The notes: generated from the sequence alone by a model not told the origin. Positions 42,829-58,664 are shown, counted from the first letter of the stretch. The stretch: DNA of 64,000 nucleotides from an uncultured Prevotellaceae bacterium (GCA_900319235.1 ONNR01000008.1:37902-101901), one strand, 5' to 3'. Numbers and translations are program-made.

Positions 42829-45800
42829 ATGAATCCCCGAAGAAAGGTCCTGACCGTCCTCTTGGCCGTCGTGACCATCTTGACCCAAGCGCAGCAGGCT
42901 ACATCCCTGCAAATCAACGAGATCTGCCCATCGAACATCGATCAATGGGTTGATCCTTCGTTTAATTATGGCGGTTGGGTCGAGCTTTATAATCCCACTT
43001 CCACGGCCGTCAATATCACCGGCTGGTATCTGAGCGACAAGAAGGAAAAGCTGCAGAAGGCCAAGGTCACGCAGACAACCTCCGTGCCCGCCAAGGGCTT
43101 CACAACCCTTTGGTTCGACCATTACAGCAAATGGTCGAAGAAGACCATCGATATGAAGCTCGATTGCGATGGCGGCACGCTCTATCTCAGCGACGCCCAG
43201 GGCAACCTCGTCACTTCGCGCGAATATCCCGAGGCCGTGTCGCGCTGCTCGTGGGCACGTACGTCCGATGGTGGCGACACGTGGAGCTATTGTGCCAATC
43301 CCACCCCAGGCAAGACCAATGCGGGCTGCAAGTTCGCCACCGAGCGTCTTGAAGAACCGGAAATCGACACACCCTCGCAGGTCTTCGGTACGTCAAGCAT
43401 CGCCGTCCACGTCACCATTCCCGAAGGCTGCACTTTGCGCTACACCACCGACGGCAGCGCGCCCACCGAGAAGAACGGCTACAATTCGCTGACGGGCGTC
43501 TTTTCGACCACTGTCACGCGCACGTTCCGCTTCCGTCTCTTCCGCGACGGCTACCTGCCCAGCGCCGTGGCTACGCGAACATTCATCAAGAGCACGCGCG
43601 ACATCGACCTGCCCATCCTCTCCATCACGGGCACGCAGGCCAATTTCTACGGCGACTCGCTGGGCATCTTCGTACAGGGAGTCAACGGACGCCCGGGCAA
43701 CGGACAGAGCTTCAAATGCAATTTCAATATGGATTGGGAGCGTCCCTCGGTGTTCGAATATTTCACGGCCGATGGCAAACTGCTCTTTGAGCAGGAGGCG
43801 GGCATCGAGCGTTGCGGTGGCTGGAGCCGAGCCTGGTCGCCCGCTTCGTTCAAGATCAAGGCCAACAAGCGCTACGAGGGCCAGAAGCACCTCCTCTATC
43901 CTTTCTTCGAGGAGAAACCCTACCTCAAGCACAAGACCGTGCAGATTCGCAATGGTGGCAACGACAACGGTTGTCGCGTGCTGGACGTCATTCTCCAGCA
44001 GATAGCTGCCACCTCGGGCCTCGACATCGACTACCAGGCCTATCAGCCCGTCGCCCATTTCGTCAACGGCGTGTGGAAGGGTGCCATCAATATGCGCGAG
44101 CCCAACAACAAGCACTTCGTCTATTCGAACTACGGCTACGACGAGGACGAGATCGACCAGTTCGAGATGTCGCCCGATTCGGGCTATTGCCAGAAGTGCG
44201 GCACCTACGAGGCGATGCAGGACCTGCTCACCCTTTCTAAGTCGGCTTCCGACGCCAATACCTACAAAGCCATCTGCGACCTCATCGATATGGACGAGTT
44301 CTGCAACTATATGGCCATCGAATTCTACCTGCGCAACAGCGACTGGCCGCAGAACAACCTCAAGGCCTGGCGCCCGCGTCGCGAGGACGGCCGCTTCCGC
44401 TTCGTGCTTTACGACCTCGATGGCTTCGACTGGACAAGTTCGCCGTTCAACGACTTCACCAACAAGCGCATCTATACCTTCAATCGCCTCTATGGCGAAT
44501 CGCAGCAGTACATCACCAAGGAGATCGAGGTGGTCACCATCTTCCTCAATCTGCTCAACAACGAGACCTTCCGCAAGAAGTTCATCGACACGTTCTGCCT
44601 CATTACCTATTCGGTGTTCGAACCTTCGCGTTGTGCCGAAATCTGCGAAAGTGTGGCCAACCGCGTGGCGCACACCCAAGGCCTTTACAACAACGAAAGT
44701 CCTTGGGGCACAGCCAACAACGTGAGGTCGGCGCTCTCGACATCGCGGCAGAACACCCTGATGAATTTGCTCAAAAGCTACAGCCGTATGAAGCTGTCGT
44801 CGCAATCCCCCCGCACGGCAAAGCTTGAGGCGAATATTCCTGAGGCGCGCCTTTCGTTCAACGGCATGCCCATCCCCACCGGCAAGTTCAACGGCAAATA
44901 CTACGCGCCCGTCACCGTCAAGGCCGAAGCCCCGTCGGGCTACGTCTTCACGGGTTGGCGTGTCGCTTCTACCACCAGCAGCGAGCTCTTCCCCACCACG
45001 CAAACCTGGCGCTACTACGACAAGGGTTCGCTCGACGGAATCAACTGGAGTGATGCCGACTACAACGATGGTTCGTGGGCTTCGGGACCTGCTCCGTTGG
45101 GTTACTACGTGGGCGGAAGTCGAGCCTATGGCACCACCATCAGCTACGGATACAACGTCAACAGCAAGTATCCGACCTACTATTTCCGCACGTCGTTCGA
45201 CCTCGCCGAAGCGCCCATGGGCAACGAGACGTTCCGCCTTTCGTTCACCGTCGACGACGGAATGATTGTCTATGTCAACGGCGTTGAGGCCATACGCTAC
45301 AATATGCCCGGTGGCAACGTCACCTACAACACCTACGCCACAACTTACGCCCAGGGCAACCCCGACAGCGGCACCGCCAACCTCAATGCCTCGCTCTTCA
45401 GGCAGGGCACCAACGTCATCGCCGTCGAAGTGCACAACAACTCCGGCTCTTCGACCGATATCTATTGGAGTGCCTCGTTGTCGAAAAACCTGACGTCGGG
45501 CGGAGAACTGGTGTGCAGCGATCCCGAATATGAACTCCCAGCAAGCAGCCGCGACCTCATCGCCTGCTTCGAACCCATCGCTTCTGCCGACACCCCTCTC
45601 CCACCTGTTGTCATCAACGAGGTGAGTGCCGACAATGGCATCTACATCAACGACTTGTGGAAGAAATCCGATTGGATTGAACTCCACAACACCACCAATC
45701 AGGACATCGACCTCGCGGGTATGTATCTCTCCGACAAGGTGGGTAAACCCGACAAGTGGCAGATAGGCGCAGACCTCGCTGAAGATTCCTCCATCTCGAC

Positions 45801-46257
45801 CATCATTCCCGCCCACGGCTACCGCATCATCTGGTGCGACAAGGAGGAGGGCATCCGTGACCTCCACGCCCCCTTCAAGCTCGAAAACGTCGATCAGAGC
45901 CAGGTCATCCTCTCGGCTGCCGATGGCTCGTGGAGCGACACGCTCACCTATTGCGCCCATCTCCCTGCCGAAACCGTCGGGCGCTATCCCGATGCTTCGC
46001 GCAACGTCTATCTGATGACGCGCACCACCATCGAGCGCACCAACCAGCTCACCACCATCGCCGCCACCGTCGAGCAACCTGCCGAGAGTGCCATCCAGCA
46101 GGTACTCTCCGACGACATCCTCGATGACAGCTATTCCATCTTCGACCTCAATGGCCGCCTTGTCCGCGAAGGCCGTGGCTCCCTCACTGAGGACCTTCCC
46201 TCGGGCGTCTATATCGTCCGCAGCAAGGGCTCGGCGTATAAGGTCGTGGTGCCGTGA
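42829..46257 (+). CDS. CotH kinase family protein with two lamin-tail (LTD) domains, Fn3-associated domains and a T9SS C-terminal sorting domain
   Basis: Two LTD signatures (LQINEI...WVELYNPT..ITGWYLSD and VVINEV...WIELHNTT..LAGMYLSD). The central CotH region is homologous to the other two CotH ORFs here. C-terminus IFDLNGRLV...GVYIVRSKGSAYKVVV. Confidence 0.85.
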   Translation: MNPRRKVLTVLLAVVTILTQAQQATSLQINEICPSNIDQWVDPSFNYGGWVELYNPTSTAVNITGWYLSDKKEKLQKAKVTQTTSVPAKGFTTLWFDHYSKWSKKTIDMKLDCDGGTLYLSDAQGNLVTSREYPEAVSRCSWARTSDGGDTWSYCANPTPGKTNAGCKFATERLEEPEIDTPSQVFGTSSIAVHVTIPEGCTLRYTTDGSAPTEKNGYNSLTGVFSTTVTRTFRFRLFRDGYLPSAVATRTFIKSTRDIDLPILSITGTQANFYGDSLGIFVQGVNGRPGNGQSFKCNFNMDWERPSVFEYFTADGKLLFEQEAGIERCGGWSRAWSPASFKIKANKRYEGQKHLLYPFFEEKPYLKHKTVQIRNGGNDNGCRVLDVILQQIAATSGLDIDYQAYQPVAHFVNGVWKGAINMREPNNKHFVYSNYGYDEDEIDQFEMSPDSGYCQKCGTYEAMQDLLTLSKSASDANTYKAICDLIDMDEFCNYMAIEFYLRNSDWPQNNLKAWRPRREDGRFRFVLYDLDGFDWTSSPFNDFTNKRIYTFNRLYGESQQYITKEIEVVTIFLNLLNNETFRKKFIDTFCLITYSVFEPSRCAEICESVANRVAHTQGLYNNESPWGTANNVRSALSTSRQNTLMNLLKSYSRMKLSSQSPRTAKLEANIPEARLSFNGMPIPTGKFNGKYYAPVTVKAEAPSGYVFTGWRVASTTSSELFPTTQTWRYYDKGSLDGINWSDADYNDGSWASGPAPLGYYVGGSRAYGTTISYGYNVNSKYPTYYFRTSFDLAEAPMGNETFRLSFTVDDGMIVYVNGVEAIRYNMPGGNVTYNTYATTYAQGNPDSGTANLNASLFRQGTNVIAVEVHNNSGSSTDIYWSASLSKNLTSGGELVCSDPEYELPASSRDLIACFEPIASADTPLPPVVINEVSADNGIYINDLWKKSDWIELHNTTNQDIDLAGMYLSDKVGKPDKWQIGADLAEDSSISTIIPAHGYRIIWCDKEEGIRDLHAPFKLENVDQSQVILSAADGSWSDTLTYCAHLPAETVGRYPDASRNVYLMTRTTIERTNQLTTIAATVEQPAESAIQQVLSDDILDDSYSIFDLNGRLVREGRGSLTEDLPSGVYIVRSKGSAYKVVVP

Positions 46258-46285
46258 TCACTTTCCACGGAATATAGATAAACAC

Positions 46286-46445
46286 CCCTTCGTACCGCGC
46301 GGCGCAGCCTCGCCAAAAGATTGCACCACTCCGTACCAAGCGGAGCAGCCTCGTCGCAAGATTGCTCCCTTTCGTACCAAGTGGAGCAGTCACGCTGCAA
46401 GATTGCACCACTCCGTCCCTCGGGGAGCAGCCGTCATCGCAACCC
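46286..46445. repeat. 41-bp tandem repeat x4, each unit hairpin-capable
   Basis: CGTACC-type unit starts at 46291, 46332, 46373 and 46414 (exact 41-bp period). Units contain GGAGCAGC..GCAAGATTGCTCC type inverted segments. Confidence 0.9.
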
Positions 46446-46546
46446 GCCTTGTCCCGTTTGTTATTGTCGCAGCTATGTTTGGCTGCCGCTCCAATAGGGA
46501 CCACGCAGCGCATCCCTCCCCGCAATATCCCCCATCTACAAACAAA

Positions 46547-46581
46547 GGGCCCGCATCAAACGATACGGACCCTTTTCCTTT
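46547..46581 (+). terminator. terminator-like hairpin about 290 nt downstream of the CotH stop
   Basis: GGGCCCG-loop-CGGACCC (1 mismatch), followed by TTTTCCTTTATT. Confidence 0.5.
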
Positions 46582-46986
46582 ATTGAGAGTGAGCATTCTC
46601 ACAATATTTCGAGCTTTACCCCATATCGGTGAGTGAGAGGTGATGCCTTTAGCCGTCAATACGTTTTACGCTTCATCGGGCTGATCCTCATTGTCAGCCT
46701 TATTATCTCTACTTTCGGCTTCAAGATGGGCCATTTGACCACAAAATCTTTCCAAGTAAGGTCTGGATATAAGAATTCCACACCGCTCATTTGTGCGCCA
46801 AGTATGGGAAAAAGCATCGGAAAGAGGGGTCCTTGTGTGTCTTTTGATGTCTGTGAGAGCTGAATTTTGATGATTTCTGTCCTTTTTTCGAGTTTGTGCG
46901 TCTTGGATACGATTGATATTGAGATATCGTACATAATTGATATTCAGCTTAATAGGTGAAAACTTGGAAAGGTTCACTGCTTCAAT

Positions 46987-47150
46987 TTCAGTTATTTCAG
47001 TTCTTCAGTTGTTTTTTCGAAGGGTGTGTCTTTTCTTCTTTTATTTTAAAATATTATATATAATTAATTATTAATAAGTTATATATTATTAATAAAGGCC
47101 TTAAAAAAATAGACCCTCTAAAATCTAACTGAAGAACTGAAATAACTGAA
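46987..47150. repeat. perfect 24-bp inverted repeat flanking a 116-bp extremely AT-rich core
   Basis: Left arm ttcagttatttcagttcttcagtt (46987-47010). Right arm aactgaagaactgaaataactgaa (47127-47150). The arms are themselves TTCAGTT word stutters. Confidence 0.9.
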
Positions 47151-47328
47151 GAACTGAAATACTTTGTTGCGAACTACTCAACTGCTTTCCCCCTACAAGG
47201 CCTGGGAGTGCTCGGAGGATCTCGTCACTCATTCACAACTCTGTTTTTTTTTTGGGTAAACGGCTGGATTAATCCTCAAAAAATATAAAAAATTATTCAA
47301 TTTTCTTTGCCATCTCCCCGAAAACACG

Positions 47329-47336
47329 TAACTTTG
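47329..47336 (+). promoter_or_regulatory. -7 box TAACTTTG
   Basis: TAnnTTTG 27 nt upstream of ATG 47363. Confidence 0.6.
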
Positions 47337-47362
47337 CAGCGCATAATTATTGCAGCGAAAAT

Positions 47363-48040
47363 ATGGATATTCAGCACTATTATATCGAGAAGGGACAGGG
47401 CGAGGAGACCATCATCCTGCTGCATGGCAATGGGGAGGACTGCACCTACTTTGTGGGGCAGATCGACGAGTTTGCCAGGCGATACCACGTGTATGCCATC
47501 GACACGCGCGGACATGGCAGGACACCGCGAGGCAACGCACCCTTCACCATCCGTCAGTTTGCCGATGACCTGCTCGAGTTTATGGACCTGCACCACATTG
47601 CGAAAGCCCACATCCTCGGCTTCTCGGATGGCGGCAACATCGCCATGATCTTCGCACTGCGGCATCCCGAACGCGTCGATAGGCTGATACTGAACGGTGC
47701 CAACCTCAATGCACGCGGCGTGAAGTTCCTGACGCAGTTCCCCATCGAAGTCGGTTACCGCATCGCCCGCCTGTCAGCAAGGTGGAGCGCTAAGGCCAAG
47801 GCAAACGCCGAGATGCTTGGTCTGATGGTGAACGACCCCAACGTTGCCCCTTCCGAACTCGCTGCCATCCGTGCCAGGACGCTGGTGATAGCGGGCACCC
47901 ACGATATGATAAAGGATGCCCACACGCGACTCATCGCGCGGAGCATCCCCAATGCTGAGCTCGTGCTGATCGATGGCTCCCATTTCATCGCCAATGAGAA
48001 GCCGGAGGAGTTCAATCGTGCCGTGCTCGCGTTTTTATAG
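47363..48040 (+). CDS. alpha/beta hydrolase
   Basis: LLHGNG, nucleophile elbow GFSDGG and C-terminal GSHF. 225 aa. Confidence 0.8.
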   Translation: MDIQHYYIEKGQGEETIILLHGNGEDCTYFVGQIDEFARRYHVYAIDTRGHGRTPRGNAPFTIRQFADDLLEFMDLHHIAKAHILGFSDGGNIAMIFALRHPERVDRLILNGANLNARGVKFLTQFPIEVGYRIARLSARWSAKAKANAEMLGLMVNDPNVAPSELAAIRARTLVIAGTHDMIKDAHTRLIARSIPNAELVLIDGSHFIANEKPEEFNRAVLAFL

Positions 48041-48042
48041 TG

Positions 48043-49413
48043 TTACTTGATCAGCACCTTGCGACCGTTGTGGATGTAGAGGCCCTTGGCAGCGGGCTTG
48101 GTTGTGAGGCGACGGCCATCGAGGGTGAACCAGGCATCGGAAGCTGGGATGTCGTTGTTGGAGTCGATGGTCGGGATGGCAACGGTAGTGTTGGCAATGT
48201 AGTCGGCCTCGAGAGCCCCGATCTTGCTGATGACATTCATGACGAAGAGCAAGGCTGCGTCGACGTGTCTGCCTTCGGAGGTATAGGTTTCGAGCTTGTC
48301 GTCGCCGATGCCGCATTTGTCACGCAGGAAGTCGCGCATGTGCTCCATGTTGAAGTAAGGCACCACCTCGTCGTCGGCTGAATGATAGAGGAAGAAGCGG
48401 GTGTCGGGATTGGGCGTCCAGTCGTAGCAGACGGAGTTGTCGTAGATAGCCTGGAAGTAGGAATCCATTGCGGGGTTGGTACGTGAGATGTTGTCGGTGC
48501 GAATCATCTTGTCGACCCGGATTCCGGTGGAGGGATTGCCGCCGATGCAAGCGAAGATGGAGTCGTTGATTTCGTCGGTGGTGAGCGCCTTGCTGTCGTT
48601 CCATTCGATGAGTTTGGTATCGAGGGGAGCGTAGAAGATGTCGCTATAGCTGATGTCGAGGTTTGCACCTTCGATCTGACCTTCGACGATGAGCGAGATG
48701 CCACACGGATAGGGGAAGGTAGCATCGGGAATGAGCAGCGTATCCATCATTGCCTTGAGGTCGTAGGGACCGTCGCCGCAGAGGGTATAGTCGATGCGGG
48801 AGATGACTGCGGGATCGACCTCGTGGGTGTCGAAATAGCGCTGAACGGCCATTGAGGAGTGTCCACCCTGCGAATAGCCGAACTGTGCAAAGAGGTCGGC
48901 GACGGAGTAACCCATCTTCTTGAGCAGACGGCGTGCGGCACCGACGGCATCGATGTGGTTGATGGCAGTGGCGTCGGCAATGAGGTAGGCCTGCGGCTTG
49001 TCATCGGTCACGCCAAAGCCGTAGCTGTCGGGGCTGACGATGATGAGGCTGGGGCCGAGGGTGGCGAAGGGGCCTTCGATCAGTGGGTTACTGTTGACGG
49101 TAGGCGCCTCGTCGCGCTTGGTGATGGTGAAGTGGTTGTTGAGCACGAGTCCGCTGGCGTTGAATTCCTTGCCAGCGATTTCGAGCATCGCAGTGCGCTC
49201 GAAGATGCGCTGGGGGAAGAAGAGAGCCGAGGAGAGTGTGACGGGTGTGACGCCGTCGGGGGCCACGCTCTCGTAGGTGTAGTTGACGCGATAGTAGGGC
49301 ATCGCGCCCATCATGTTGAACGTCATCAGCGTGGTGTCGGTGATGACTTCTTCGGCCGAAAGGCTCAGGGTGCACGCCATGAGGAGTGCGGAGAGGTAGA
49401 ATTTCTTGTTCAT
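48043..49413 (-). CDS. secreted lipase/esterase-like alpha/beta hydrolase with T9SS C-terminal sorting domain
   Basis: Signal peptide and nucleophile elbow GYSQGG. C-terminus WFTLDGRRL..KGLYIHNGRKVLIK. Confidence 0.7.
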   Translation of the reverse strand: MNKKFYLSALLMACTLSLSAEEVITDTTLMTFNMMGAMPYYRVNYTYESVAPDGVTPVTLSSALFFPQRIFERTAMLEIAGKEFNASGLVLNNHFTITKRDEAPTVNSNPLIEGPFATLGPSLIIVSPDSYGFGVTDDKPQAYLIADATAINHIDAVGAARRLLKKMGYSVADLFAQFGYSQGGHSSMAVQRYFDTHEVDPAVISRIDYTLCGDGPYDLKAMMDTLLIPDATFPYPCGISLIVEGQIEGANLDISYSDIFYAPLDTKLIEWNDSKALTTDEINDSIFACIGGNPSTGIRVDKMIRTDNISRTNPAMDSYFQAIYDNSVCYDWTPNPDTRFFLYHSADDEVVPYFNMEHMRDFLRDKCGIGDDKLETYTSEGRHVDAALLFVMNVISKIGALEADYIANTTVAIPTIDSNNDIPASDAWFTLDGRRLTTKPAAKGLYIHNGRKVLIK

Positions 49414-49548
49414 AAATAAAGTGTTTTATGAATTAGTTATACGCCGCAAAGATAAGCTTTTGGGGTGAGAATACCAAAATAATGATTAAAAAATAATGCC
49501 GAAAAGTGAAATATAATTATTTTTTATGGTTGATTGAATAAAAATCAG

Positions 49549-49556
49549 TATCTTTG
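49549..49556 (+). promoter_or_regulatory. -7 box TATCTTTG
   Basis: TAnnTTTG 29 nt upstream of ATG 49585. Confidence 0.6.
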
Positions 49557-49584
49557 CGCAGTTTTAACAATAAAGAAGAAAGTT

Positions 49585-49884: not shown

Positions 49885-49892
49885 CGTCATTT

Positions 49893-50790: not shown

Positions 50791-52611
50791 TTATCTGATT
50801 TGTATCTTCTTGACCAGAGGGCCCTGGCGCACGATATAGATGCCCGTGGGAAGAGCGTTGAGGTCGGTGCCGAGGGTTTGGCCACTGAGCGAATAGACGC
50901 TGTAGGGGCGGCTGAAGTCGATGTCGTCGGGGTCGGAATCGGAGATGATTGAGATGCTTTCGGGAACATAGGTGTAGCCCAGGCGATTGTCCATCCATTC
51001 GACGCGCTTTCGGATGAAGTCGCGCACATTCTCCACCTCGGCGGCATAACTGCCCCAGATCCTGGGGTTCTGGTGCACAATCTTCTTCATGATGGGCCAA
51101 CGGAGGAAGTTGAGTTCCTGCGACAGGAGGAGCTCCTCCTCCATCGAATCGACGAAGGCGACGAGATGTTCCTGGTCGATGCCATTGTGTCGAGCCTCGC
51201 CCCATATCGCGAGCAGCTGGTCCTTCGTGCTTTCGTTATTGATGATGATCTTATCGACAAAACTGCGCATATTGCCCGCACAGCTTCCTCCCGATCGATA
51301 GACGTAGTCGCTCATATCGTTGGGGTTCCTGATGCGCCCGTCGTTGTTGAAAGCGAGGTCGAAGTCCCAGACGGGACCTGTGTAGATGGTGTCGTTCAGA
51401 CGTTGCTTGTACATGAAGACGCTCCAATAGGTGTCGATGTTGCCCGAGAGTTCGCCCACGAGGAAATGTCGCAGGAAGGTGTTGAGGTCGAGGTAACTGC
51501 TCCAGTTGCTCTCCATCCTGTTGAAGTGATTGCGGATGTAGTTCTTCTGGACGGAGGTGATGCTGTCGCTATCGGGCGACTTGATGGTGACGGGCTTCCA
51601 CTGATTGGAGTAGAAATAGGATGCTTCGCGATCGGCATAAGCATCGATTTCGAAGAAGTAGCCGCCTGTGAGCGCATCGCCGCTATTGTCGCGCGGCGTC
51701 ATCTCCTCGATCTGGACACGATCCTTGTGAACCTGGATGTGGTCGCAAAGCTGGTAACAGCCCTTGTATTCGCCGTTGAGCAGCACATCGACGGCACGGC
51801 CGTAGGGAGTGTAGGGCATGCCCAACCGTCGACTCAATTCGAAGGCCAGCAGGTTGCGCATCAGCGTCTTGTCGCCATAATTGTTGATGAGTGTCCACTT
51901 TTTGGCGTGGGCAGGAGCATCGAGCACGTGCTGCTTCTTTTCGAACTTGATGCGCCAGGGCTTCTTGGGAAAATCGCGCGAAGCATTGCCGCGTTCGCGG
52001 ATGGTGCCGGGTTCGGAGAGCAGGGCATAAGAGCTGTCGCCGATGATGGTGAACTGCGCCTCTATTTCGTGCTCTTTATCGTAGGGAATTACCCCATCGA
52101 GGGTGTGGATGCTGACGGTGGGGAGGTTGGTGATGCGAGTGAGATTGGAATGGTCGCCCATGCCTTTATGGCCATAGAATTCGAGCTCAGCGACTTGAGA
52201 AAAACTGGTAGCCGGTCCTACATAGCGCACATAACGAAAACCTACGGAACAAGTGATCTCAGCATAATTCATCTCCCCCGGTTTGCCCACCTCGCCGACA
52301 CTTCTGATGATGTGAAGGGGCAAGGCATCCATAAAGTCGGGGCTATTGGCGCCTTCGAACACGCCGAGGATCATACGGCTGGGGACGTTGTCGCGCGGCA
52401 TCCACCCTACCCTGGTGATGACGTGACGTTCACCCAGGTCGAGGCCTGCCCAACCGTAGTTGAAGTTCGTGGCAGAGAAGTAAGTGCCAGGATTTCCGTC
52501 GAAAGCCTTGTCGGCGTTGTTGAGTACGGTTCCCGTCAACAGGTCATCTGCAGCCAGCGACACCATGCTGACTGCCCATAGAATGACCAATGATGTATAG
52601 AATCTTAACAT
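50791..52611 (-). CDS. CotH kinase family protein with N-terminal F5/8 type C (discoidin) domain and T9SS sorting domain
   Basis: Discoidin-like N-terminus (AFDGNPGTYF...VAELEFYG). CotH core homologous to 56031..58664. C-terminus VYSLSGQ...GIYIVRQGPLVKKIQIR. Confidence 0.85.
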   Translation of the reverse strand: MLRFYTSLVILWAVSMVSLAADDLLTGTVLNNADKAFDGNPGTYFSATNFNYGWAGLDLGERHVITRVGWMPRDNVPSRMILGVFEGANSPDFMDALPLHIIRSVGEVGKPGEMNYAEITCSVGFRYVRYVGPATSFSQVAELEFYGHKGMGDHSNLTRITNLPTVSIHTLDGVIPYDKEHEIEAQFTIIGDSSYALLSEPGTIRERGNASRDFPKKPWRIKFEKKQHVLDAPAHAKKWTLINNYGDKTLMRNLLAFELSRRLGMPYTPYGRAVDVLLNGEYKGCYQLCDHIQVHKDRVQIEEMTPRDNSGDALTGGYFFEIDAYADREASYFYSNQWKPVTIKSPDSDSITSVQKNYIRNHFNRMESNWSSYLDLNTFLRHFLVGELSGNIDTYWSVFMYKQRLNDTIYTGPVWDFDLAFNNDGRIRNPNDMSDYVYRSGGSCAGNMRSFVDKIIINNESTKDQLLAIWGEARHNGIDQEHLVAFVDSMEEELLLSQELNFLRWPIMKKIVHQNPRIWGSYAAEVENVRDFIRKRVEWMDNRLGYTYVPESISIISDSDPDDIDFSRPYSVYSLSGQTLGTDLNALPTGIYIVRQGPLVKKIQIR

Positions 52612-52662
52612 GACGTATCAATCATCAGGACTAAATATCCGATTTCCAGTTTCTTCGAGCCG

Positions 52663-52670
52663 CAAATTTA
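52663..52670 (-). promoter_or_regulatory. -7 box TAAATTTG
   Basis: TAnnTTTG on the minus strand, 52 nt upstream of ATG 52611. Confidence 0.5.
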
Positions 52671-52860
52671 TGTAAAACCGCTCAAAACCCCAAACTTTTG
52701 TCTCAAGTTTGTCGATGATGGACCAAATTCGATATTTCATGGTGACAAAAACCGAAATATTGCATGGTGAAGATGGCAATAATATGCTAAAATATAAAAT
52801 CTAGTGACTAAGTGTCGTCTTTTTTGTAGAAATAGCGTCGATTGTTTCGGGAAAAGTGAT

Positions 52861-52868
52861 TATCTTTG
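52861..52868 (+). promoter_or_regulatory. -7 box TATCTTTG
   Basis: TAnnTTTG 81 nt upstream of ATG 52949. Confidence 0.5.
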
Positions 52869-52948
52869 CATAAAGAAAACAGTTGTCAATTACCTCACCC
52901 ACTCTATTTTTTGATAATCCTAATACATATCTAATTCTAATAAACATC

Positions 52949-55567
52949 ATGAAACATCTTTCTACGTTTCTGGCTTTACTTTCGGCATTAACCGTAAATG
53001 TAGCCGTGGCTCAGGAAGTTAGCATCGATGAGGCACAAGGCCGTGCCGTCGATTTCCTGAAGAGCCAGACCGATGGCGCCAAGCGCGTCAAGGGGGCAGA
53101 CGTTGCCCCACATGTTTCGTTGGCCTATACCTCGAAGAGCGAGGACAAGACATGTTTCTACGTCTTCAATGCCGGTGAGGACGAGGGTTTCGTCATCGTC
53201 GGTGGTGACGAGGCTGCGCATGAGATTTTGGGTTATTGTGACCATGGCTCGTTCGATTATGACACTGCTCCTGCCAACTTAAAGTGGTGGCTGAGCCAGT
53301 ACACCGAGCAGATTGCCCATGCCGCAAAGGCTGGGGTTAAGGGTGCACGTAGAGCGAAGGCAGAAACGACGACACGAGCAGAAATAACTCCTTTGATAAG
53401 CACGAAGTGGGATCAAGATGCTCCCTATAATGGTTTGATTCCTAAATACACAAGTGGAAATAATGAATATTCTTTCATCACAGGATGTGTGGCAACGGCT
53501 ATGGCACAAGTGATGAAATACCATCACTTTACCCCTTTTGCTGGTGTTACTATACCAAGCTATAATAGTCTGATTACGTATCCAAACAGTAGCAAGGATG
53601 AAAAGATGGAGATACCAAGTATTACGGTTCCATCTAATTATTCATGGGATGCTATGTTAGATTTGTATCCATCGTCTTACGATCCTCAGAATGCCAATGA
53701 TGTTGCAGTAGCTGAGCTGATGTATCATGCAGGAGCTTCGGTGCTAATGAAGTATGGCACTATGCAAACCGGTGGTTCGAGCGCTAGTTCAGCAAAAATA
53801 CCTGGAGCTCTATCTTCATATTTCGGATACGACAAATCGGCGCACAATGAGTATAGAGGATGCTATTCGGATGAGGTGTGGGAAGACATGGTTTATGCAG
53901 AACTGTCAAATGGTAAGCCTGTACTATATAGCGGAAGTACAATAGAAGGTGCTGGTCATCAATTCATTTGTGACGGTTATAAAGATGTCGGTTATCATAT
54001 CAATTGGGGATGGAGCGGTGCTTATAATGGCTTTTTTCTGTTGACTCCATATAACAACACTCCCGCCTTAACTCCTGACGGTACTGGAAGTGGTGGTGGA
54101 GCTGCTGGATCATCATACGACCAAGGTCAACTGATTACTTTGGGACTGAAACAAAATGCAGGAGGTTCAGAAACTCCACATCTTGTTCAGATCACAGATA
54201 ATTCTACACTCACTACTCCAATGTATATGAAGGTAGGAAATGAACAAGTAAATAATTATACATACAATGTTTCTACCGACAATAGTCAGTGTTATCTTTC
54301 TACTACAATCTATAATATCAGTTGCCTTTCTAGCCAGTTTGACTATGGCGTTAAAGCAGTTAATAAGGAATCTGGCGAGGTAAAATATATACTATCACAA
54401 TATGAGGGTCAAAATTTAAGTGTTGGTAATTACTATAGTAGTCTGGTTAATCTTCATTTTACCCCATCCAACCTTACTGATGGCACATATCAGCTATTTC
54501 CTGCATTCAGAATGTATGGAAGTAGTGATTGGATGGATGTTCAGTTGAATTGTTCTGCTACTATTCCAGAAATAACGATAACAAGAGATGTGCAACCAAG
54601 CACACAACTGATTCAATTGACAAGGAGCCCGGAATTCAATAATGACAACAATCCATATTCCGGAGATCTTGTATTTAATATTTATTTTAGGATTAATGTT
54701 GCGGATGCTGGGAACGATAAAATTCCCTCAGTTTCTTTATATGCTAAAATAGATAAAGAAGATGGAACAAACGTAGCTAATCATACTATCAATTTTTCCA
54801 ATGTTCAACCAAATGCTAATTTAAGTGGTACAGTCAACTTATCAAGTTTGTCAGAATCACTAGTTACCAACAACAAATACACTTTGACATTCTTTTCTGA
54901 TGCAAGTTATACAGAATCACTTGGTGATAATTCTTCCATCGACTTCACTTATCGTGAAGGATTAACTGTATATTACGGCGTAAGTCCTGCTGGATACGGC
55001 ACACTCATCTTGCCATTCAATGCTAAGGTGCCCGAAGGTATGACTCTCTATAGTTGCGATTTGACTGATAATAATAATGCTATTTTATTGTCTCCATTGA
55101 CAACAACTGTTATCGAACGCAACAAGCCCTACATCGTAAAGGCAAATTATGATTCTAATGATCCTAGTCCTTATTCGTTTACAGGCCCCAAGGCAATAGA
55201 TGATGACCATCTATTCGTAGATGGCTTCTTGTGTGGAGCAGTGGCTAACGATGTGCCACTTACCCATAATGATTATATTTTGCAATATAATTCTGAGACT
55301 CAAACCGCTGGATTCTATTTGTACGTCAGCGAAACTGAAAATCGCAAAGCAGCACCTTATCGTGCGTTTTTACGTATTCAGAATCGTAATTTGGCACCTC
55401 CTGTTCTACCTAATGAAGAGCCAGAAAGCATCGAGGAAATACGGATGAACCACAGCATTCCTGCCGGCATCTACTCGCTCGACGGCAAACGCCAATCGGA
55501 GCTGAAGAAGGGTCTGAATGTGATTATCCTCGACGATGGAACTTCTAAAAAAGTATATGTCAAATAA
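52949..55567 (+). CDS. C10-family (streptopain-like) cysteine peptidase with Spi-type propeptide, a long C-terminal extension and a T9SS sorting domain
   Basis: Signal peptide and pro-region VSIDEAQGRAVDFL. Catalytic Cys in TGCVATAMAQVMKYHHF and catalytic His in AGHQFICDGY..YHINWGWSG. C-terminus GIYSLDGKR...KKVYVK. Confidence 0.85.
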   Translation: MKHLSTFLALLSALTVNVAVAQEVSIDEAQGRAVDFLKSQTDGAKRVKGADVAPHVSLAYTSKSEDKTCFYVFNAGEDEGFVIVGGDEAAHEILGYCDHGSFDYDTAPANLKWWLSQYTEQIAHAAKAGVKGARRAKAETTTRAEITPLISTKWDQDAPYNGLIPKYTSGNNEYSFITGCVATAMAQVMKYHHFTPFAGVTIPSYNSLITYPNSSKDEKMEIPSITVPSNYSWDAMLDLYPSSYDPQNANDVAVAELMYHAGASVLMKYGTMQTGGSSASSAKIPGALSSYFGYDKSAHNEYRGCYSDEVWEDMVYAELSNGKPVLYSGSTIEGAGHQFICDGYKDVGYHINWGWSGAYNGFFLLTPYNNTPALTPDGTGSGGGAAGSSYDQGQLITLGLKQNAGGSETPHLVQITDNSTLTTPMYMKVGNEQVNNYTYNVSTDNSQCYLSTTIYNISCLSSQFDYGVKAVNKESGEVKYILSQYEGQNLSVGNYYSSLVNLHFTPSNLTDGTYQLFPAFRMYGSSDWMDVQLNCSATIPEITITRDVQPSTQLIQLTRSPEFNNDNNPYSGDLVFNIYFRINVADAGNDKIPSVSLYAKIDKEDGTNVANHTINFSNVQPNANLSGTVNLSSLSESLVTNNKYTLTFFSDASYTESLGDNSSIDFTYREGLTVYYGVSPAGYGTLILPFNAKVPEGMTLYSCDLTDNNNAILLSPLTTTVIERNKPYIVKANYDSNDPSPYSFTGPKAIDDDHLFVDGFLCGAVANDVPLTHNDYILQYNSETQTAGFYLYVSETENRKAAPYRAFLRIQNRNLAPPVLPNEEPESIEEIRMNHSIPAGIYSLDGKRQSELKKGLNVIILDDGTSKKVYVK

Positions 55568-55585
55568 TCTATAATTTAGAATGTT

Positions 55586-55759
55586 ATGAAAAAGCAATAT
55601 AATACCCCAAAACTTGATGTAGTCAATTTGGAGCTTAATGATATAGTAACTCAATCGAATGGAGGTGAAACATTGGGTGTTTCTGCAACCGGTTATACCT
55701 CAGGAGCTACTCAATGGGGCAAGCGCCGTCCGGACATCTGGGGAGAGGACGAAGACTAA
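55586..55759 (+). CDS. small ORF (57 aa), below the track threshold; paralog of 58692..58853
   Basis: MKKQYNTPKLDVVNLELNDIVTQSNGGETLGVSATGYTSGATQWGKRRPDIWGEDED. Starts 19 nt after the C10 stop and is followed by a terminator. Confidence 0.45.
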   Translation: MKKQYNTPKLDVVNLELNDIVTQSNGGETLGVSATGYTSGATQWGKRRPDIWGEDED

Positions 55760-55782
55760 TTCGAAATAACTACCCTATCAAT

Positions 55783-55817
55783 AAGCCTTGGCCGATTGTG
55801 GTCAAGGCTTTATTTTG
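55783..55817 (+). terminator. rho-independent terminator (copy 1 of a near-identical pair)
   Basis: AAGCCTTGGCC-GATTGT-GGTCAAGGCTT, then TATTTTG. Confidence 0.8.
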
Positions 55818-55926
55818 CGTTCAAAAATTGTTCGACAAACATGGCAAAAATAAAATATAGAAATATTTTAGAGAAACAATAGTGAATTTTTTGGTGTTTG
55901 AATTTGTTTAATTCAGAAAAAAGTTG

Positions 55927-55934
55927 TATTTTTG
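55927..55934 (+). promoter_or_regulatory. -7 box TATTTTTG
   Basis: TAnnTTTG 97 nt upstream of ATG 56031. Confidence 0.45.
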
Positions 55935-56030
55935 CAAAGTTATGTTCGAAAATTCGGAAACTAGCCTATTGTAAAAGGTATCGAATCACAGAATATGGTT
56001 GTAAGTATATTTTATTTTAGAAAGAACTGA

Positions 56031-58664
56031 ATGTTTTTAGAACTACTATCTAATGTGCTGAAACGGTTTTGTTTCTGTTTGATATTTATGAGCTCAGCCA
56101 CTGCGATGTCTTTGGCTGAAGATGTTGTATTGTCTGGCACGGTGCTCAATGGTTCAAATAATGCTTTTGACCAAAACGCAAGCACATACTATTCGGGCAA
56201 TTCCAAGAACTATGCATGGGCAGGTTTGGATTTGGGAGACCCGTGCATTATTACTAAGGTGGGATGGATGCCTCGTAGCGGTTATGTTAGTCGTATGCAA
56301 CTTGGCGTCTTTGAAGGAGCTAACGACCCGAACTTTATGGATGCCTTGCCTCTCACGATTATTCGTGTTGCTGGACAAGCGGGAAAAATGAACTATGCCG
56401 AAGTCTCCTGTTCTCGTGGTTTTCGCTATGTGCGCTATGTCGGTCCTTCGGGTAGTTTTGGAAATGTCGCAGAACTAGAATTCTATGGGCATCCAGGCGA
56501 GGGTGATATGTCCAATCTCTATCGTATCACCAATCTGCCTACTATCAGCCTCCATACTCTCAATAATGAGCTTCCCGTAGATAAGGAAAATGATGTGAAT
56601 GTACAAATTATCATCATTGGTGATAACGTCAGTCAATATCTGATTGAACCAGGATCATTCCGTGAGCGAGGCAATGTGTCGCGTTATTTTGACAAGAAAC
56701 CCTGGCGAATAAAGTTTGAGAGCAAGCAACGCGTGCTTGATGCACCTGCCAAGGCCAAGAAATGGACCCTTATCCCTAACTATAGTGACAAGACCTTGAT
56801 GCGTAACCTTTTAGCCTTCGAGCTAAGTCGATGTGTCGGTATGCCTTATACTCCTTATGGACGTTCCGTAGATGTTCTTGTGAATGGCGAGTACAAAGGT
56901 AATTATCAGTTATGTGATCAGATTCAGGTCCATAAGAAACGTGTCAATATCGAGGAGATGACACCTCGTGATGACTCTGGAGATGCCCTTACTGGTGGAT
57001 ATCTGTTTGAGATTGATGCTTATGCTGACGATGAGAAGTCCTTTTTTTATTCTGAGAAGAATACTCCTGTGACCATCAAGTCGCCTGATGATGACAGTAT
57101 CACCGACAATCAGAGGAATTATATCGAGACTCATTTTAACAAATTGGAGAACGATTGGCGCAAATATCTTGACCTGAATACATTCCTGCGACACTTTCTT
57201 GTTGGAGAGCTATCGGGCAATACTGACACCTATTGGAGCGTCTACATGTACAAGCATAGGATGAATGATACCATCTATACAGGCCCCGTATGGGATTTCG
57301 ACATAGCTTTTCAAAACGATTATCGTACCTACCCCATCAATGACAAGAGCGATTTTATTTATCGCTCGGGAGGAAGTTGTGCGGGCAACATGCTGAATTT
57401 TGTAGATGATATCGTCATTAACAATGATAGCGCATCTCAACGACTTGTTTCCATTTGGGAAGAAGCTCGTCATAAAGTATTGGATGAAGAACATGTTGTT
57501 GCATATATAGATTCACTTGAGGAGGAAATGCAGCAATCGCAGGAGCTTAATTTCAAGCGCTGGCCTATTTTGAAAGAGAGGGTACAAATGAATCCAATTG
57601 TCTGGGGCAGTTATGAAGCCGAGGTCGGAAATGTGCGCGACTTTGTCGTCAATCGTATTAAATGGATGGACAATCGCCTGGGTGCTGTGATTGACCCGGC
57701 ACTATTTGTTGATCAGCCTTTTGTCAACAATGGCAATAATGCATACGAAGATGATCTGGTGATGCACTTCAATCTCAAGAGTGAATCCCGGTATGAGTCA
57801 AATGCCCATGTATATTATTCGATCAATGCCGATCAGTTGGCATGGAATGGTCGAAATGATTATGCTTCGATTCCTGTTGGCGGAGAATTGACGGGAGAAT
57901 TGGACCTTGCTCAGTCTTTTGCAGACATCAAGAATGACTTGACGCCAAATCAGAGCTACACGGTCTATTTCTATACCGATAAGAACCGGAACAAGCCCTA
58001 CAACTATCCTTCGGCCACCTTTACCTATCGTTCGAAACTGACGGTTGACTATAGTGTTGAATCTATGGGATATGGCACGCTGATACTTCCATTTGACCAC
58101 GAACTTCCCGAAGGCTGGAAAGTGTATGGTTGTTCGGGCGTAGATGAAAATGGCGTGCTGACCTTGGACGAAGATGTCAGCATCAGGCGCAATGTGCCAT
58201 ACATCATACAGGCCACTCCAGGCACTACCTACCAGTTTGTGGGCCCTAAGGCCATCGATGCCGATAAACCTACATTTACCGAAGGTGTGTTGGTCGGAGT
58301 TGTTGCCGACAACGTCCCGCTCGTTGCAGGAACAGACTACATCATGCAGGATCAGGCTGGCAGGGTCGCATTCTATAAATACACGGGCACTCCCTCGACC
58401 GACCCATTGGAGAATGACAGCAATAATAATCGGCTTGCTACACCTTTCCGTGCTTATCTGAGGCTCAATAATTCAGCCAATGCCAAGTTATTCTTGCCTA
58501 ATCATATTGCTGGCGAGACTGAGGGTATCGAGGAAATTGGCAACGAAAATGCCCGTCGTGCCGGCTTCTACTCCATCGACGGCAAGCGACATGAATCTCT
58601 CCAGAAGGGCTTTAACCTAATCATCAGCGAAGATGGCTCGGTTCAAAAAGTTTTCGTCAAATAA
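56031..58664 (+). CDS. CotH kinase family protein with N-terminal discoidin domain, a C-terminal module shared with the C10 peptidase, and a T9SS sorting domain
   Basis: Strongly similar by eye to 50791..52611 over the discoidin and CotH regions. The last ~300 aa align with the C-terminus of 52949..55567. Confidence 0.85.
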   Translation: MFLELLSNVLKRFCFCLIFMSSATAMSLAEDVVLSGTVLNGSNNAFDQNASTYYSGNSKNYAWAGLDLGDPCIITKVGWMPRSGYVSRMQLGVFEGANDPNFMDALPLTIIRVAGQAGKMNYAEVSCSRGFRYVRYVGPSGSFGNVAELEFYGHPGEGDMSNLYRITNLPTISLHTLNNELPVDKENDVNVQIIIIGDNVSQYLIEPGSFRERGNVSRYFDKKPWRIKFESKQRVLDAPAKAKKWTLIPNYSDKTLMRNLLAFELSRCVGMPYTPYGRSVDVLVNGEYKGNYQLCDQIQVHKKRVNIEEMTPRDDSGDALTGGYLFEIDAYADDEKSFFYSEKNTPVTIKSPDDDSITDNQRNYIETHFNKLENDWRKYLDLNTFLRHFLVGELSGNTDTYWSVYMYKHRMNDTIYTGPVWDFDIAFQNDYRTYPINDKSDFIYRSGGSCAGNMLNFVDDIVINNDSASQRLVSIWEEARHKVLDEEHVVAYIDSLEEEMQQSQELNFKRWPILKERVQMNPIVWGSYEAEVGNVRDFVVNRIKWMDNRLGAVIDPALFVDQPFVNNGNNAYEDDLVMHFNLKSESRYESNAHVYYSINADQLAWNGRNDYASIPVGGELTGELDLAQSFADIKNDLTPNQSYTVYFYTDKNRNKPYNYPSATFTYRSKLTVDYSVESMGYGTLILPFDHELPEGWKVYGCSGVDENGVLTLDEDVSIRRNVPYIIQATPGTTYQFVGPKAIDADKPTFTEGVLVGVVADNVPLVAGTDYIMQDQAGRVAFYKYTGTPSTDPLENDSNNNRLATPFRAYLRLNNSANAKLFLPNHIAGETEGIEEIGNENARRAGFYSIDGKRHESLQKGFNLIISEDGSVQKVFVK

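Follow-up and report, generated by a model that had tools for sequence, protein, structure and literature searches.

Extracellular CotH proteins combined with binding modules are already known from the apparatus with which anaerobic microbes degrade plant walls. The cellulosomes of Clostridium (Acetivibrio) thermocellum carry CseP (Cthe_0044), a CotH protein, and Cthe_0239, which has the order LTD-LTD-Fn3-CotH; Ccel_1101 and the dockerin-bearing CotH proteins of rumen fungi belong to the same kind of apparatus. The locus described here, from an uncultured Prevotellaceae bacterium, resembles these systems in pairing a long CotH protein that contains LTD with a short one of about 60-70 kDa, and in the co-occurrence of a protease. 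A preliminary description of this DNA remarked on exported CotH proteins combined with binding domains, a combination that is not new. What differs is the way in which the proteins would be displayed, since the cellulosomal ones have a dockerin whereas these have a T9SS C-terminal sorting domain (CTD); a Pfam search for dockerins gave no match in any protein, and by membership the locus is not cellulosomal. Moreover, there is a CBM62 on the short forms, one copy has a tail borrowed from a C10 peptidase, and the genes are coupled to a C10 peptidase, to small ORFs and to a gene for an AraC-type HTH protein.

Two other systems are close in part. The Bacillus CotH spore-coat kinase (PDB 5JD9/5JDA) shares the fold (E 1e-12, TM 0.69) and both catalytic aspartates, but identity is only 14-16%, it has no signal peptide, CBM or CTD, and its targets are CotB and CotG within the mother cell; nothing like these two is encoded at this locus. 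Clusters of CAZymes with T9SS CTDs are already known in rumen Bacteroidales, where Ca. Paraporphyromonas polyenzymogenes has one that is, like this locus, a non-PUL set of CTD-bearing secreted proteins linked to plant fibre; it consists of GH5 cellulases, whereas the core here (CotH, C10) is made of non-CAZymes and has CAZymes as neighbours. We consider it fairly probable that we are dealing with a conserved chromosomal locus of uncultured cow-rumen Bacteroidales (Prevotellaceae-like) that encodes accessory proteins of an extracellular plant-fibre apparatus, and that would be the T9SS analogue of the cellulosomal CotH proteins.

Gene content and sorting signals

The window, that is the whole stretch of 64,000 nucleotides that was analysed, is identical to a cow-rumen metagenome contig (46031-64000 correspond to 1-17970 of L014, at 100% identity), and the sequence analysed comprised the window and about 4.6 kb of additional contig. 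The gut or oral origin assumed at the outset thus gives way to a rumen metagenome, with no human gut or oral isolate involved. A scan of genome contigs returned relatives at 46-49% identity only. The three CotH-family proteins, the C10 zymogen and the LipA-like esterase were all found as first described (Table 1), and so was the beginning of the secreted-gene stretch at clpC: CTD-bearing genes are limited to 42.8-64 kb of the window, and no gene scored in a tail HMM search of 0-42.8 kb. The large ORFs of the window include no SusC or SusD, as had also been noted, and no adjacent pair of the two, which is the criterion for a PUL; in the relatives L004-L006, the CotH pair has a SusC/SusD/GH115 set immediately upstream.

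Table 1. Features of the locus, in window coordinates; signal peptides, CTDs and hairpins are predictions.
Feature	Coordinates	Strand	Product and matches	Parts
CotH-1	42829..46257	+	1142 aa; Pfam LTD x2, CotH, CHB_HEX_C_1	signal peptide; LTD 42889-43227; CHB_HEX_C_1 43393-43575; CotH 43816-44718; weak CBM-like region 45076-45453; LTD 45601-45951; CTD about 46075-46254
LipA-like alpha/beta-hydrolase (esterase)	48043..49413	-	456 aa; PDB 3h2g match	signal peptide; short CTD 48046-48168
Terminator-like hairpin at CotH-2	50751-50783			
CotH-2	50791..52611	-	606 aa; Pfam CotH 2.4e-44	signal peptide; CBM62 52159-52527; CotH 50992-52002; CTD 50794-50955
C10 cysteine peptidase zymogen	52949..55567	+	872 aa; Pfam Peptidase_C10, Inhibitor_I69	signal peptide; I69 propeptide 53009-53314; C10 domain 53408-54037; middle region; shared beta-sandwich module about 54629-55429; short CTD 55430-55564
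pepA	55586..55759	+	conserved 57-aa ORF directly downstream of C10	
Terminator-like hairpin after pepA	55783-55810			
CotH-3	56031..58664	+	877 aa; Pfam CotH 1.9e-42	signal peptide; CBM62 56148-56504; CotH 56661-57668; shared two-beta-sandwich module 57696-58523; short CTD 58524-58661
pepB	58692..58853	+	conserved 53-aa ORF adjoining CotH-3	
Hairpin after pepB	58867-58895			
Small AraC-type HTH protein	58886..59221	-	111 aa, DNA-binding domain only; Pfam	
GH3 beta-glucosidase-type lipoprotein	59632..62112	+	Pfam Glyco_hydro_3, _3_C, Fn3-like	
PL1 pectate lyase	62188..64000, cut by window end	+	780 aa in full contig	

Signal peptides and C-terminal T9SS signals are present on all five proteins, from which we infer, in agreement with the preliminary description, that they are exported as T9SS cargo. 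The accompanying claim of a recognisable CTD on each protein survives against the Prevotella short-CTD definition and in profile comparisons, but not against the generic models: CotH-1 stays below the cut-offs of TIGR04183 (20.8 bits, cut-off 23) and PF18962 (18.9 bits, cut-off 27), and neither model matches the other four, as full proteins or as isolated tails, up to an E-value of 10. A strict regular expression for the tails flagged CotH-2 alone. We replaced the generic HMMs with profile-profile tests and with the published definition, in which Ye et al. 2025 describe the short CTD of P. intermedia as 40-51 residues at the extreme C-terminus, after a PT/GI cleavage motif, with a motif B (Y..G and a basic residue), a motif D (GxY or GxN, then Ile) and a basic motif E, structured as a flexible linker with the cleavage site followed by a single three-stranded sheet.

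By motif inspection against this description, rather than by HMM score, three tails are of the short type: those of CotH-3 (TE/GIEEI...FYSIDGKR...KGFNLII...QKVFVK; 46 aa, TE/GI, GxN type), of the C10 peptidase (45 aa, GxN type) and of the esterase (IPT/ID...FTLDGRR...KGLYIHNGRKVLIK; 41 aa, PT/ID, GxY type). Motif B of the tails shows Y..G with a basic residue, motif D is GxY or GxN with I or L as the next residue, and motif E is basic. The CTDs of CotH-1 and CotH-2 are of medium length. In the model of the CotH-3 tail, residues 265-286 have pLDDT below 50 and include the T/GI site at 276/277, and strands at 290-293, 305-310 and 316-321 form a three-stranded sheet as in the short CTD. The profiles link the tails to one another and to PF18962-positive CTDs: hhalign gave a probability of 88% (E 3e-6) for CotH-1 against the CTDs of PF18962-positive orthologs, and 94% (E 1e-7) for CotH-2 against PF18962-positive CTDs. 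The esterase and PL1 tails are linked weakly; this and the failure of the generic CTD models count against the explanation that we favour. P. intermedia cargo shares with these proteins the motifs, the length and the three-strand structure, but comes from a different niche and host, and the sections consulted of that study mention no CotH cargo. The proteins would leave the cytoplasm through Sec by their signal peptides and cross by T9SS through the short or medium CTD, whose cleavage in the flexible linker would probably leave them glycan-anchored on the surface of the cell or of vesicles.

The neighbouring genes extend this picture. The hydrolase first described as lipase-like has no Pfam or NCBIfam match, and a LipA-like character is suggested by similarity to Xanthomonas oryzae LipA (PDB 3h2g) at 3.6e-7, which covers residues 121-286 only and includes an identical GYSQGGH nucleophile motif. 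The LipA type is defined by a full catalytic triad and a carbohydrate-anchoring module. Directly after the 16-kb stretch come the GH3 gene, whose product has a lipoprotein-like N-terminus (...ATAC|NKQ), and the PL1 gene (L014 16158-18500, matching Pectate_lyase_4), whose signal peptide and tail AYDLMGRKVRTEQRGVLVKGGRVVVVK make it the predicted sixth CTD-bearing cargo. The small HTH protein matches HTH_18 (4.6e-13) and HTH_AraC (7.3e-11). A sigma-70 promoter scan is uninformative for Bacteroidota.

CotH domains, their CBM62 heads and the question of catalysis

All three CotH proteins pass the gathering score of PF08757 (23.8 bits) with 76.6 bits for CotH-1, 152.6 for CotH-2 and 146.4 for CotH-3. 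CotH-2 and CotH-3 are the close, inverted paralogs around the peptidase that had been announced (68% identity over 550 aa), but the idea of three paralogs holds for family membership only, since CotH-1 is a distant member and has no BLAST similarity to CotH-3. The two lamin-tail domains of CotH-1 proved sound (Pfam LTD 2.3e-25 and 9.5e-11, next to CotH at 3.2e-21), and its public gene call is also 1142 aa. The discoidin domains of CotH-2 and CotH-3 had to be renamed: F5_F8_type_C scores 21 bits against a cut-off of 28, and the N-terminal domain is clearly a CBM62, given the matches to PDB 2yb7 (4.3e-23 for CotH-2, 4.2e-26 for CotH-3, 8e-32 with a profile) and the superposition of the CotH-2 model on 2yg0 (Foldseek 7e-12, TM 0.82, 40% identity). 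CBM62 targets galactose side chains and is known from plant-xylan enzymes; CtCBM62 of C. thermocellum Xyl5A (PDB 2YB7/2YG0) has the same length, but is appended to a glycoside hydrolase, whereas here the module lies N-terminal to a kinase-fold domain. It would hold CotH-2 and CotH-3 on galactose-decorated plant polysaccharides, and CotH-1 may be targeted by its lamin-tail and CBM-like domains.

The AF2 model of CotH-2 (pLDDT 81.6) matches 5jda and 5jd9 (5jda at 9.5e-13, TM 0.69), which supports the CotH assignment with an atypical protein kinase-like fold; a sequence search with CotH-3 reached 5jd9 at 0.004. The catalytic aspartates are retained. D393 and D416 of CotH-2 align to D224 and D247 of B. 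cereus CotH, and D393, D416 and D418 are invariant across 34 CBM62-CotH sequences. By a numbering offset of +4, the B. cereus residues should be D228 and D251 of B. subtilis CotH, whose mutation inactivates the kinase (Freitas et al. 2020). D505, N510, D529 and D531 of CotH-1 do not vary among 30 homologues; its putative catalytic residues D505 and D529 were placed by motif and not by alignment to the PDB, because PDB searches with the single sequence and with a 30-sequence profile gave no match and the A3-versus-A1 profile comparison returned the CTD alone, without the CotH domains. The Asn five residues past the catalytic Asp is present in B. cereus CotH and in CotH-1, and is replaced by Val in CotH-2 and CotH-3, a substitution that counts against the kinase explanation.

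Kinase activity outside the cell is open to doubt, since little ATP is available there. The CotH domains of this locus might instead be pseudo-enzymes, that is binding or scaffolding modules that help cells or enzymes adhere to plant particles. No source of extracellular ATP is obvious, the role of the cellulosomal CotH proteins is undefined in the literature, where an extracellular CotH kinase activity has been termed unexpected, and plant cell walls have been put forward, as a speculation, as what the dockerin-bearing CotH proteins of anaerobic fungi bind; the missing Asn of CotH-2 and CotH-3 points the same way. Yet 34 diverged sequences of the CotH-2/3 type, and 30 of the CotH-1 type, keep both catalytic aspartates and many residues around them without variation, and binding is already supplied by a separate, dedicated CBM. 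We find a role limited to binding unlikely, and in the plant-fibre apparatus proposed above the CotH domains would most likely use a nucleotide to phosphorylate a protein, or possibly a glycan, outside the cell.

The C10 peptidase, its tail and the small ORFs

The streptopain-like nature of the peptidase is well founded: it matches Peptidase_C10 at 5.7e-53 (180.5 bits) and Inhibitor_I69 at 1.2e-24 (87.1 bits), SpeB at 1.5e-45 and interpain A at 3e-42, and its catalytic Cys (TGCVATA) and His (GHQF) align to those of SpeB. It shares the C10 domain and I69 propeptide with streptopain and with interpain A of P. intermedia, but has a C-terminal extension of 480 aa, and the host organism and niche differ. 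The enzyme would be secreted as an I69-inhibited zymogen. Over its last 310 aa it shows 37% identity to the tail of CotH-3 (E 2e-47), of which residues 556-877 are modelled as two beta-sandwiches, a disordered linker and a three-strand tail (AF2 pLDDT 84). CotH-3 is a chimera of a CBM62-CotH head and a beta-sandwich tail typical of C10 peptidases. A simple local duplication of CotH-2 and CotH-3 is unlikely, because their GC3 differs strongly (0.73 and 0.47, respectively) and CotH-3 has its 300-aa tail in common with the peptidase. Since both have the same beta-sandwich stalk, the peptidase and CotH-3 would be displayed alike. A word-index search found the tail module in 11 proteins, and an exhaustive profile search in 8,868; its other carriers include LRR proteins of the BspA type and a protein that has a hyaluronate-lyase N-terminal beta-sheet domain, which counts against a plant-fibre explanation.

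In Prevotella and Porphyromonas, C10 peptidases are better known for acting on the host, which also counts against such an explanation. Proteases of the interpain and gingipain type and the CotH invasins of Mucorales are the models for a surface module whose C10 and CotH proteins would be directed at other microbes or at epithelial or immune proteins of the host. Streptopain and interpain A are the closest matches of the C10 domain, the company of its tail just described fits such targets, P. intermedia T9SS cargo is treated as virulence factors, and Big_1 and TPR proteins, not CAZymes, follow the module in two synteny variants. We nevertheless hold a host- or competitor-directed module to be improbable. 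All related contigs with a recorded source environment come from ruminant digesta, the targeting module is a CBM62, and the locus contains no host-ligand-specific element. Plant fibre is favoured over host tissue as the target because of this CBM62, the putative LipA-type cell-wall esterase, the GH3, the CTD-bearing PL1 and the SusC/SusD/GH115 set of the relatives. The early suggestion of a coordinated surface or host-interaction module thus stands for the link between CotH and C10, which recurs in four loci, but its host role is poorly supported.

The C10 and CotH-3 genes are each followed by a conserved ORF of 53-57 aa, pepA and pepB, and then by the same terminator-like hairpin, the two hairpins being almost identical. 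In all related loci the C10 gene has an ORF of the pepA type after it, and in L004-L006 one of the pepB type is located upstream of CotH-3; the public annotation of pepA is hypothetical protein. Inhibitors encoded beside their cysteine proteases are familiar from Spi and the staphostatins. The small proteins could likewise be dedicated partners of C10 and CotH-3, either substrates that yield cleaved or phosphorylated signals or cognate inhibitors or chaperones, with the locus built around them. Each type keeps to its own enzyme through rearrangements and shares a terminator with the enzyme gene; at the protein level their conservation is similar to that of their neighbours, their centres are acidic and rich in Ser/Thr, and genes for secreted proteins with a CTD precede the more distant members as well. 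Against this, pepA and pepB have no signal peptide while the enzymes are exported, their translation is predicted only, CotH-1 and CotH-2 have no such ORF, and no family matches them save for a sub-threshold similarity of 11 residues to a lasso-peptide leader. We regard dedicated partnership as unlikely. The same holds for the core as a new exported enzyme-peptide system, in which a T9SS-displayed CotH kinase and a C10 protease on the same stalk would each be tied to their own acidic, Ser/Thr-rich peptide (pepB and pepA), the peptides acting as inhibitors or chaperones or yielding phosphorylated or cleaved signals that possibly feed back through the AraC-type HTH protein, and the CBM62-CotH head would be swapped between strains as a retargeting cassette; this too has low probability in our view.

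Two further assignments of the small ORFs were discarded. Lasso-peptide precursors are recognised by a family HMM above its cut-off, an acidic residue at core position 7-9 and adjacent B/C maturases; NF033528 gives 17 bits against a cut-off of 33 and covers no more than 11 residues, the position of the acidic residue is inconsistent, and the locus has no maturase genes. The 'MKKxYNTP' ORFs of L025-L027 and L030, which adjoin genes for unrelated secreted proteins and SASA/metallo-beta-lactamase genes, were excluded from the pepA/pepB family because only their first 24-29 residues are common to it.

Conservation of the locus and its significance

Four synteny variants in diverged rumen Bacteroidales share a core made of CotH-2 (-), C10 (+) and the AraC-type HTH gene (-). 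The HTH protein closes the module in four of four variants and is 71-100% conserved in L001-L006 and L016-L023. CotH-3 and the esterase vary between the variants and CotH-1 stays beside clpC, so that the 16 kb cannot be maintained as the one island of the preliminary description. It is very unlikely that the locus is a mobile island that brought in these secreted proteins recently: C10 and CotH-3 have a lower GC3 (0.36-0.47) than the flanks (0.68-0.80), they diverge between strains in a mosaic manner (one 2-kb block is 100% identical, 1.5 kb only about 70%), with a variable segment of C10 at 54536-55031, and the 90%-identity clusters have four members for C10, five for CotH-3 and 64-149 for neighbours, but the same core occupies conserved chromosomal contexts in diverged lineages, CotH-1 adjoins clpC in a genome with an 82%-identical ortholog, there are no tRNA genes, the proteins scanned include no integrase or transposase, and the low GC3 of C10 is common to three lineages and thus old.

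Why fibre-degrading microbes export proteins with the CotH kinase fold is a question that dates from the discovery of CseP and arises in anaerobic fungi too. Our best reading is that rumen Bacteroidales dealt with the same problem independently, by means of T9SS signals and CBM62. The locus offers new experimental handles on this question, namely a conserved partner protease with a shared display module, candidate partner peptides and a putative local regulator. Both CotH families are very abundant and number over 4,700 and over 3,500 clusters in the databases. Should no enzymatic activity emerge, the family would amount to a large set of pseudo-kinase adhesins. If kinase activity and a substrate are identified, they would represent a new activity in the turnover of plant biomass, with a bearing on ruminant nutrition and on enzyme cocktails.

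Gene content and arrangement

The five genes that the preliminary description had listed as an island of T9SS cargo (42829-58664) are all present in the ORF listing and by Pfam search, including the two lamin-tail domains of CotH-1. The C10 peptidase is streptopain-like as proposed: it matches streptopain (1.5e-45) and interpain A (3e-42) with catalytic Cys and His aligned, and carries an I69 propeptide. The putative esterase had no Pfam or NCBIfam match, and was recognized by its similarity to LipA, a cell-wall esterase of Xanthomonas oryzae (PDB 3h2g, 3.6e-7), with an identical GYSQGGH nucleophile elbow. CotH-2 and CotH-3 are indeed close paralogs (68% identity over the first 550 residues) in inverted orientation around C10. 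CotH-1 lacks BLAST-level similarity to CotH-3 and is therefore a distant family member, not a close paralog. A GH3 gene and then a PL1 pectate lyase gene follow the locus. The PL1 gene overruns the window end and is therefore absent from the ORF list; a listed 339-aa ORF lies antisense within it and is probably spurious.

Features of the window discussed in the text
Feature	Coordinates	Strand	Remarks
DUF5686 protein	6877-9489		870 aa; signal peptide; CarbopepD_reg_2
MauE/triose-phosphate isomerase ORF	36725-38770	-	681 aa
ClpC-type ATPase	ends 42713
CotH-1	42829-46257	+	CotH, CHB_HEX_C_1; lamin-tail at 42889-43227 and 45601-45951
Alpha/beta hydrolase	47363-48040		cytoplasmic-looking; no obvious export role
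Esterase	48043-49413	-	LipA-like
Flavin-reductase lipoprotein	49928-50620		no obvious export role
CotH-2	50791-52611	-	full-length Pfam CotH match, 2.4e-44
C10 peptidase	52949-55567	+	I69 propeptide; between CotH-2 and CotH-3
pepA	55586-55759		57 aa; downstream of C10
Terminator-like hairpin	55783-55810		after pepA; strong, T-run
CotH-3	56031-58664	+	full-length Pfam CotH match, 1.9e-42
pepB	58692-58853		53 aa; downstream of CotH-3
Terminator-like hairpin	58867-58895		after pepB; strong, T-run
AraC-type HTH protein	58886-59221	-	111 aa; no obvious export role
PL1 pectate lyase	62188-64000		continues past window end
Antisense ORF	62665-63684	-	within PL1 gene

The 16 kb do not hold together as one island, since the four arrangements recovered share only the core CotH-2(-)/C10(+)/HTH(-). 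In the window (variant A) the order is ClpC, CotH-1, hydrolase, esterase, flavin reductase, CotH-2(-), C10, CotH-3, HTH(-), GH3 and PL1. In variant B (contigs L001-L003) nothing of the window's order is kept to the left of the esterase, where a type I restriction HsdR gene lies instead: the synteny breakpoint with the 93% identical L001 strain is right next to the esterase gene on that side (window 48042, L001 2023), and HsdR stands where the hydrolase, CotH-1 and clpC lie in the window. Variant C (L016, L017, L020, L021; full order seen in L016/L017) runs ClpC, CotH-1, flavin reductase, CotH-2(-), C10, HTH(-), Big_1 and TPR, without esterase or CotH-3. Variant D (L004-L006) runs SusC, SusD, GH115, CotH-2(-), CotH-3, C10 (with Big_2), HTH(-), Big_1 and TPR. 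CotH-1 keeps a stable linkage with clpC. Among CBM-CotH homologues that are more distant (46-50% identity), none had a C10 nearby. The flavin-reductase-like lipoprotein gene adjoins CotH-2 in three of the four variants (A, B and C), which would place a periplasmic or surface flavin reductase beside exported kinase-fold proteins. Elsewhere in the window, MauE and triose-phosphate isomerase share a single ORF and are two slightly overlapping genes in L016; the single ORF could reflect a genuine fusion or a frameshift, or have arisen as an ORF-calling artefact.

CBM62 domains and predicted sorting signals

The N-terminal domains of CotH-2 and CotH-3 had been called discoidin, which is right for the fold at the superfamily level; the specific family is CBM62. 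Pfam F5_F8_type_C reached 21 bits on CotH-2 (threshold 28) and had no match in CotH-3, while CtCBM62 of Clostridium thermocellum Xyl5A matched CotH-2 at 4.3e-23, CotH-3 at 4.2e-26 and the family profile at 8e-32. The AlphaFold model of CotH-2 superposes on CBM62 (TM 0.82, 40% identity). The literature links this family to side chains that contain galactose in complex plant xylans (PMC5063996). To judge from sequence, the N-termini thus point to plant glycans, and the host-interaction reading proposed earlier is weak. Window positions 46031-64000 are 100% identical to a 137-kb cow-rumen metagenome contig (project PRJEB21624), and the related contigs with a recorded source come from ruminant digesta. 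As previously noted, SusC/SusD were not found among the large ORFs scanned in the window; the DUF5686 protein is of outer-membrane type, not SusC. A more distant relative has a SusC/SusD/GH115 set directly upstream of the CotH pair, and clusters of CAZymes with T9SS C-terminal sorting domains (CTDs) outside PULs are known from rumen Bacteroidales (PMC5831590).

The generic CTD models TIGR04183 and PF18962 stayed below threshold in all five proteins, which taken literally counts against the proposed sorting domains, but four other lines of evidence support them. CotH-1 orthologues at ~50% identity do match PF18962, and the CTDs of these orthologues align with the CotH-1-family and CotH-2-family tails (hhalign probability 88% and 94%). 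The CotH-2 tail is in turn matched by the C10/CotH-3 tail (86%) and the esterase tail (76%), and when the CotH-1 and CotH-2 families are compared profile to profile, they match best at the C-terminus. A tail HMM built from CotH-2-family tails alone and run against 493 six-frame ORFs ranked CotH-1 (8e-7), C10 (0.005) and CotH-3 (0.02) at the top, each at the extreme C-terminus. Decisive was the comparison with the 'short' CTDs that mass spectrometry showed on Prevotella intermedia T9SS cargo, which needed dedicated HMMs. Ye et al. (2025) describe these as 40-51 aa in length, with a flexible linker that holds a PT/GI cleavage motif and a single 3-stranded sheet; Y..G and a basic residue make up motif B, GxY/GxN then Ile motif D, and motif E is basic. 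The tails of CotH-3 (46 aa, TE/GIEEI...FYSIDGKR...KGFNLII...QKVFVK), C10 (45 aa, GxN type) and the esterase (41 aa, IPT/ID...FTLDGRR...KGLYIHNGRKVLIK) fit that description, and the CotH-3 tail model has the T/GI site in a disordered linker followed by three strands. All five proteins have signal peptides. The PL1 pectate lyase has one too, with a tail of the same kind, and is therefore a predicted sixth cargo.

Shared tail, small ORFs and mosaic divergence

The last ~310 residues of C10 and CotH-3 are homologous (37% identity, E 2e-47). The two proteins share it in variant D as well, where identity with the module of the window is 62% and 47%. The module is modelled as two beta-sandwich domains, a linker and the short CTD (pLDDT 84), with only generic Ig-like structural neighbours. 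Its profile matched 8,868 representative proteins, nearly always at the extreme C-terminus. Because a sample of these (n=46) held 16 C10 peptidases, 12 Big_2 carriers and no CotH, CotH-3 is a chimera that joins a CBM62-CotH head to the kind of tail usual in C10 peptidases.

Base composition and divergence also vary within the locus. Across 52949-59221, GC3 is 0.36 in C10, 0.47 in CotH-3 and 0.55 in HTH, against 0.68-0.80 in the flanking genes, CotH-2 among them; in variants C and D (L016, L005) C10 likewise has a low value. The window and the L001 strain are 94-100% identical across most of the locus, and exactly so over a 2-kb block (51036-53035), but identity falls to ~70% in the CotH-3 head (56032-57519) and 75% in a 0.5-kb segment of C10 (54536-55031). 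The head in L001 has GC3 0.62 and lies closer to CotH-2. At 90% identity, C10 and CotH-3 form clusters of 4-5 members and their neighbours of 64-149. A recent island does not fit, with no tRNA genes in the window and no integrase among the proteins scanned. Composition, divergence and cluster sizes together have the pattern expected when cassettes of a variable surface protein are exchanged by recombination.

The small ORFs pepA and pepB are homologous, both begin MKKxYxxP, and are the sole matches to M[KR]K.Y..P in the whole window. The pepA type directly follows C10 in every variant and the pepB type adjoins CotH-3 even under changed gene order; both types are conserved, and each stays with its own enzyme when loci are rearranged. 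Two more distant ORFs of this type likewise follow genes for CTD-bearing secreted proteins. Publicly annotated as hypothetical proteins, pepA and pepB have no signal peptide and could be assigned to no family; a lasso-peptide leader match, sub-threshold over 11 residues only, does not hold up. Since the GC-rich hairpins after them (12-13 bp, AAGCCTTGGCC.AT.GTGGTCAAGGCTT) are nearly identical, we suggest that at each 3' end the tail module, the small ORF and the terminator were copied or relocated together.

Catalytic residues and putative function

Structure comparison supports the CotH fold for CotH-2, whose AlphaFold model (pLDDT 81.6) matches the Bacillus cereus CotH kinase (5jda/5jd9, E ~1e-12, TM 0.69). 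The catalytic residues are kept: in a 34-sequence profile D393 and D416 (WDFD) are invariant across the family and align to B. cereus D224 and D247. By the numbering offset they should correspond to D228 and D251 of the Bacillus subtilis CotH kinase, mutation of which inactivates it. PDB sequence searches gave no alignment for CotH-1, so its mapping is motif-based only; D505, N510, D529 and D531 are invariant in its family. Five residues past the catalytic Asp, B. cereus CotH and CotH-1 have Asn, where CotH-2 and CotH-3 have Val. Both CotH families of the locus are very abundant in Bacteroidales metagenomes (>4,758 and >3,508 matches), and matches with a name are annotated 'CotH kinase family protein'. 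Other ruminant-gut Bacteroidaceae MAGs carry an unusual fusion, CotH in one ~1512-aa ORF with an N-terminal voltage-gated channel-like ion-transport domain (L008 9137-13675, L009 9095-13639, L011 9005-13543); the L009 copy matches Ion_trans at 9.6e-34 and CotH at 2.9e-38.

CotH proteins are known outside the cell from the cellulosomes of bacteria and fungi, where their presence still awaits an explanation. That of C. thermocellum includes CseP (CotH, 62 kDa) and Cthe_0239 (LTD-LTD-Fn3-CotH, 117 kDa), and both architectures exactly match those of the window locus. The latter would thus resemble in function the cellulosomal accessory set of CotH and protease, although display here would be via T9SS. 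In the literature searched we found no paper linking CotH with T9SS or treating CotH in Prevotella, nor a description of the conserved core of CotH, C10 and HTH, the stalk that C10 and CotH-3 share, the small ORFs beside them or the cassette-like variation. Overall, the observation first made on this region is confirmed and its interpretation in part. As to function, phosphotransfer and proteolysis displayed at the cell surface and directed at plant-particle substrates are the most likely. The parts of the locus are ordinary and widespread, but together they give concrete handles on the long-standing CotH question.
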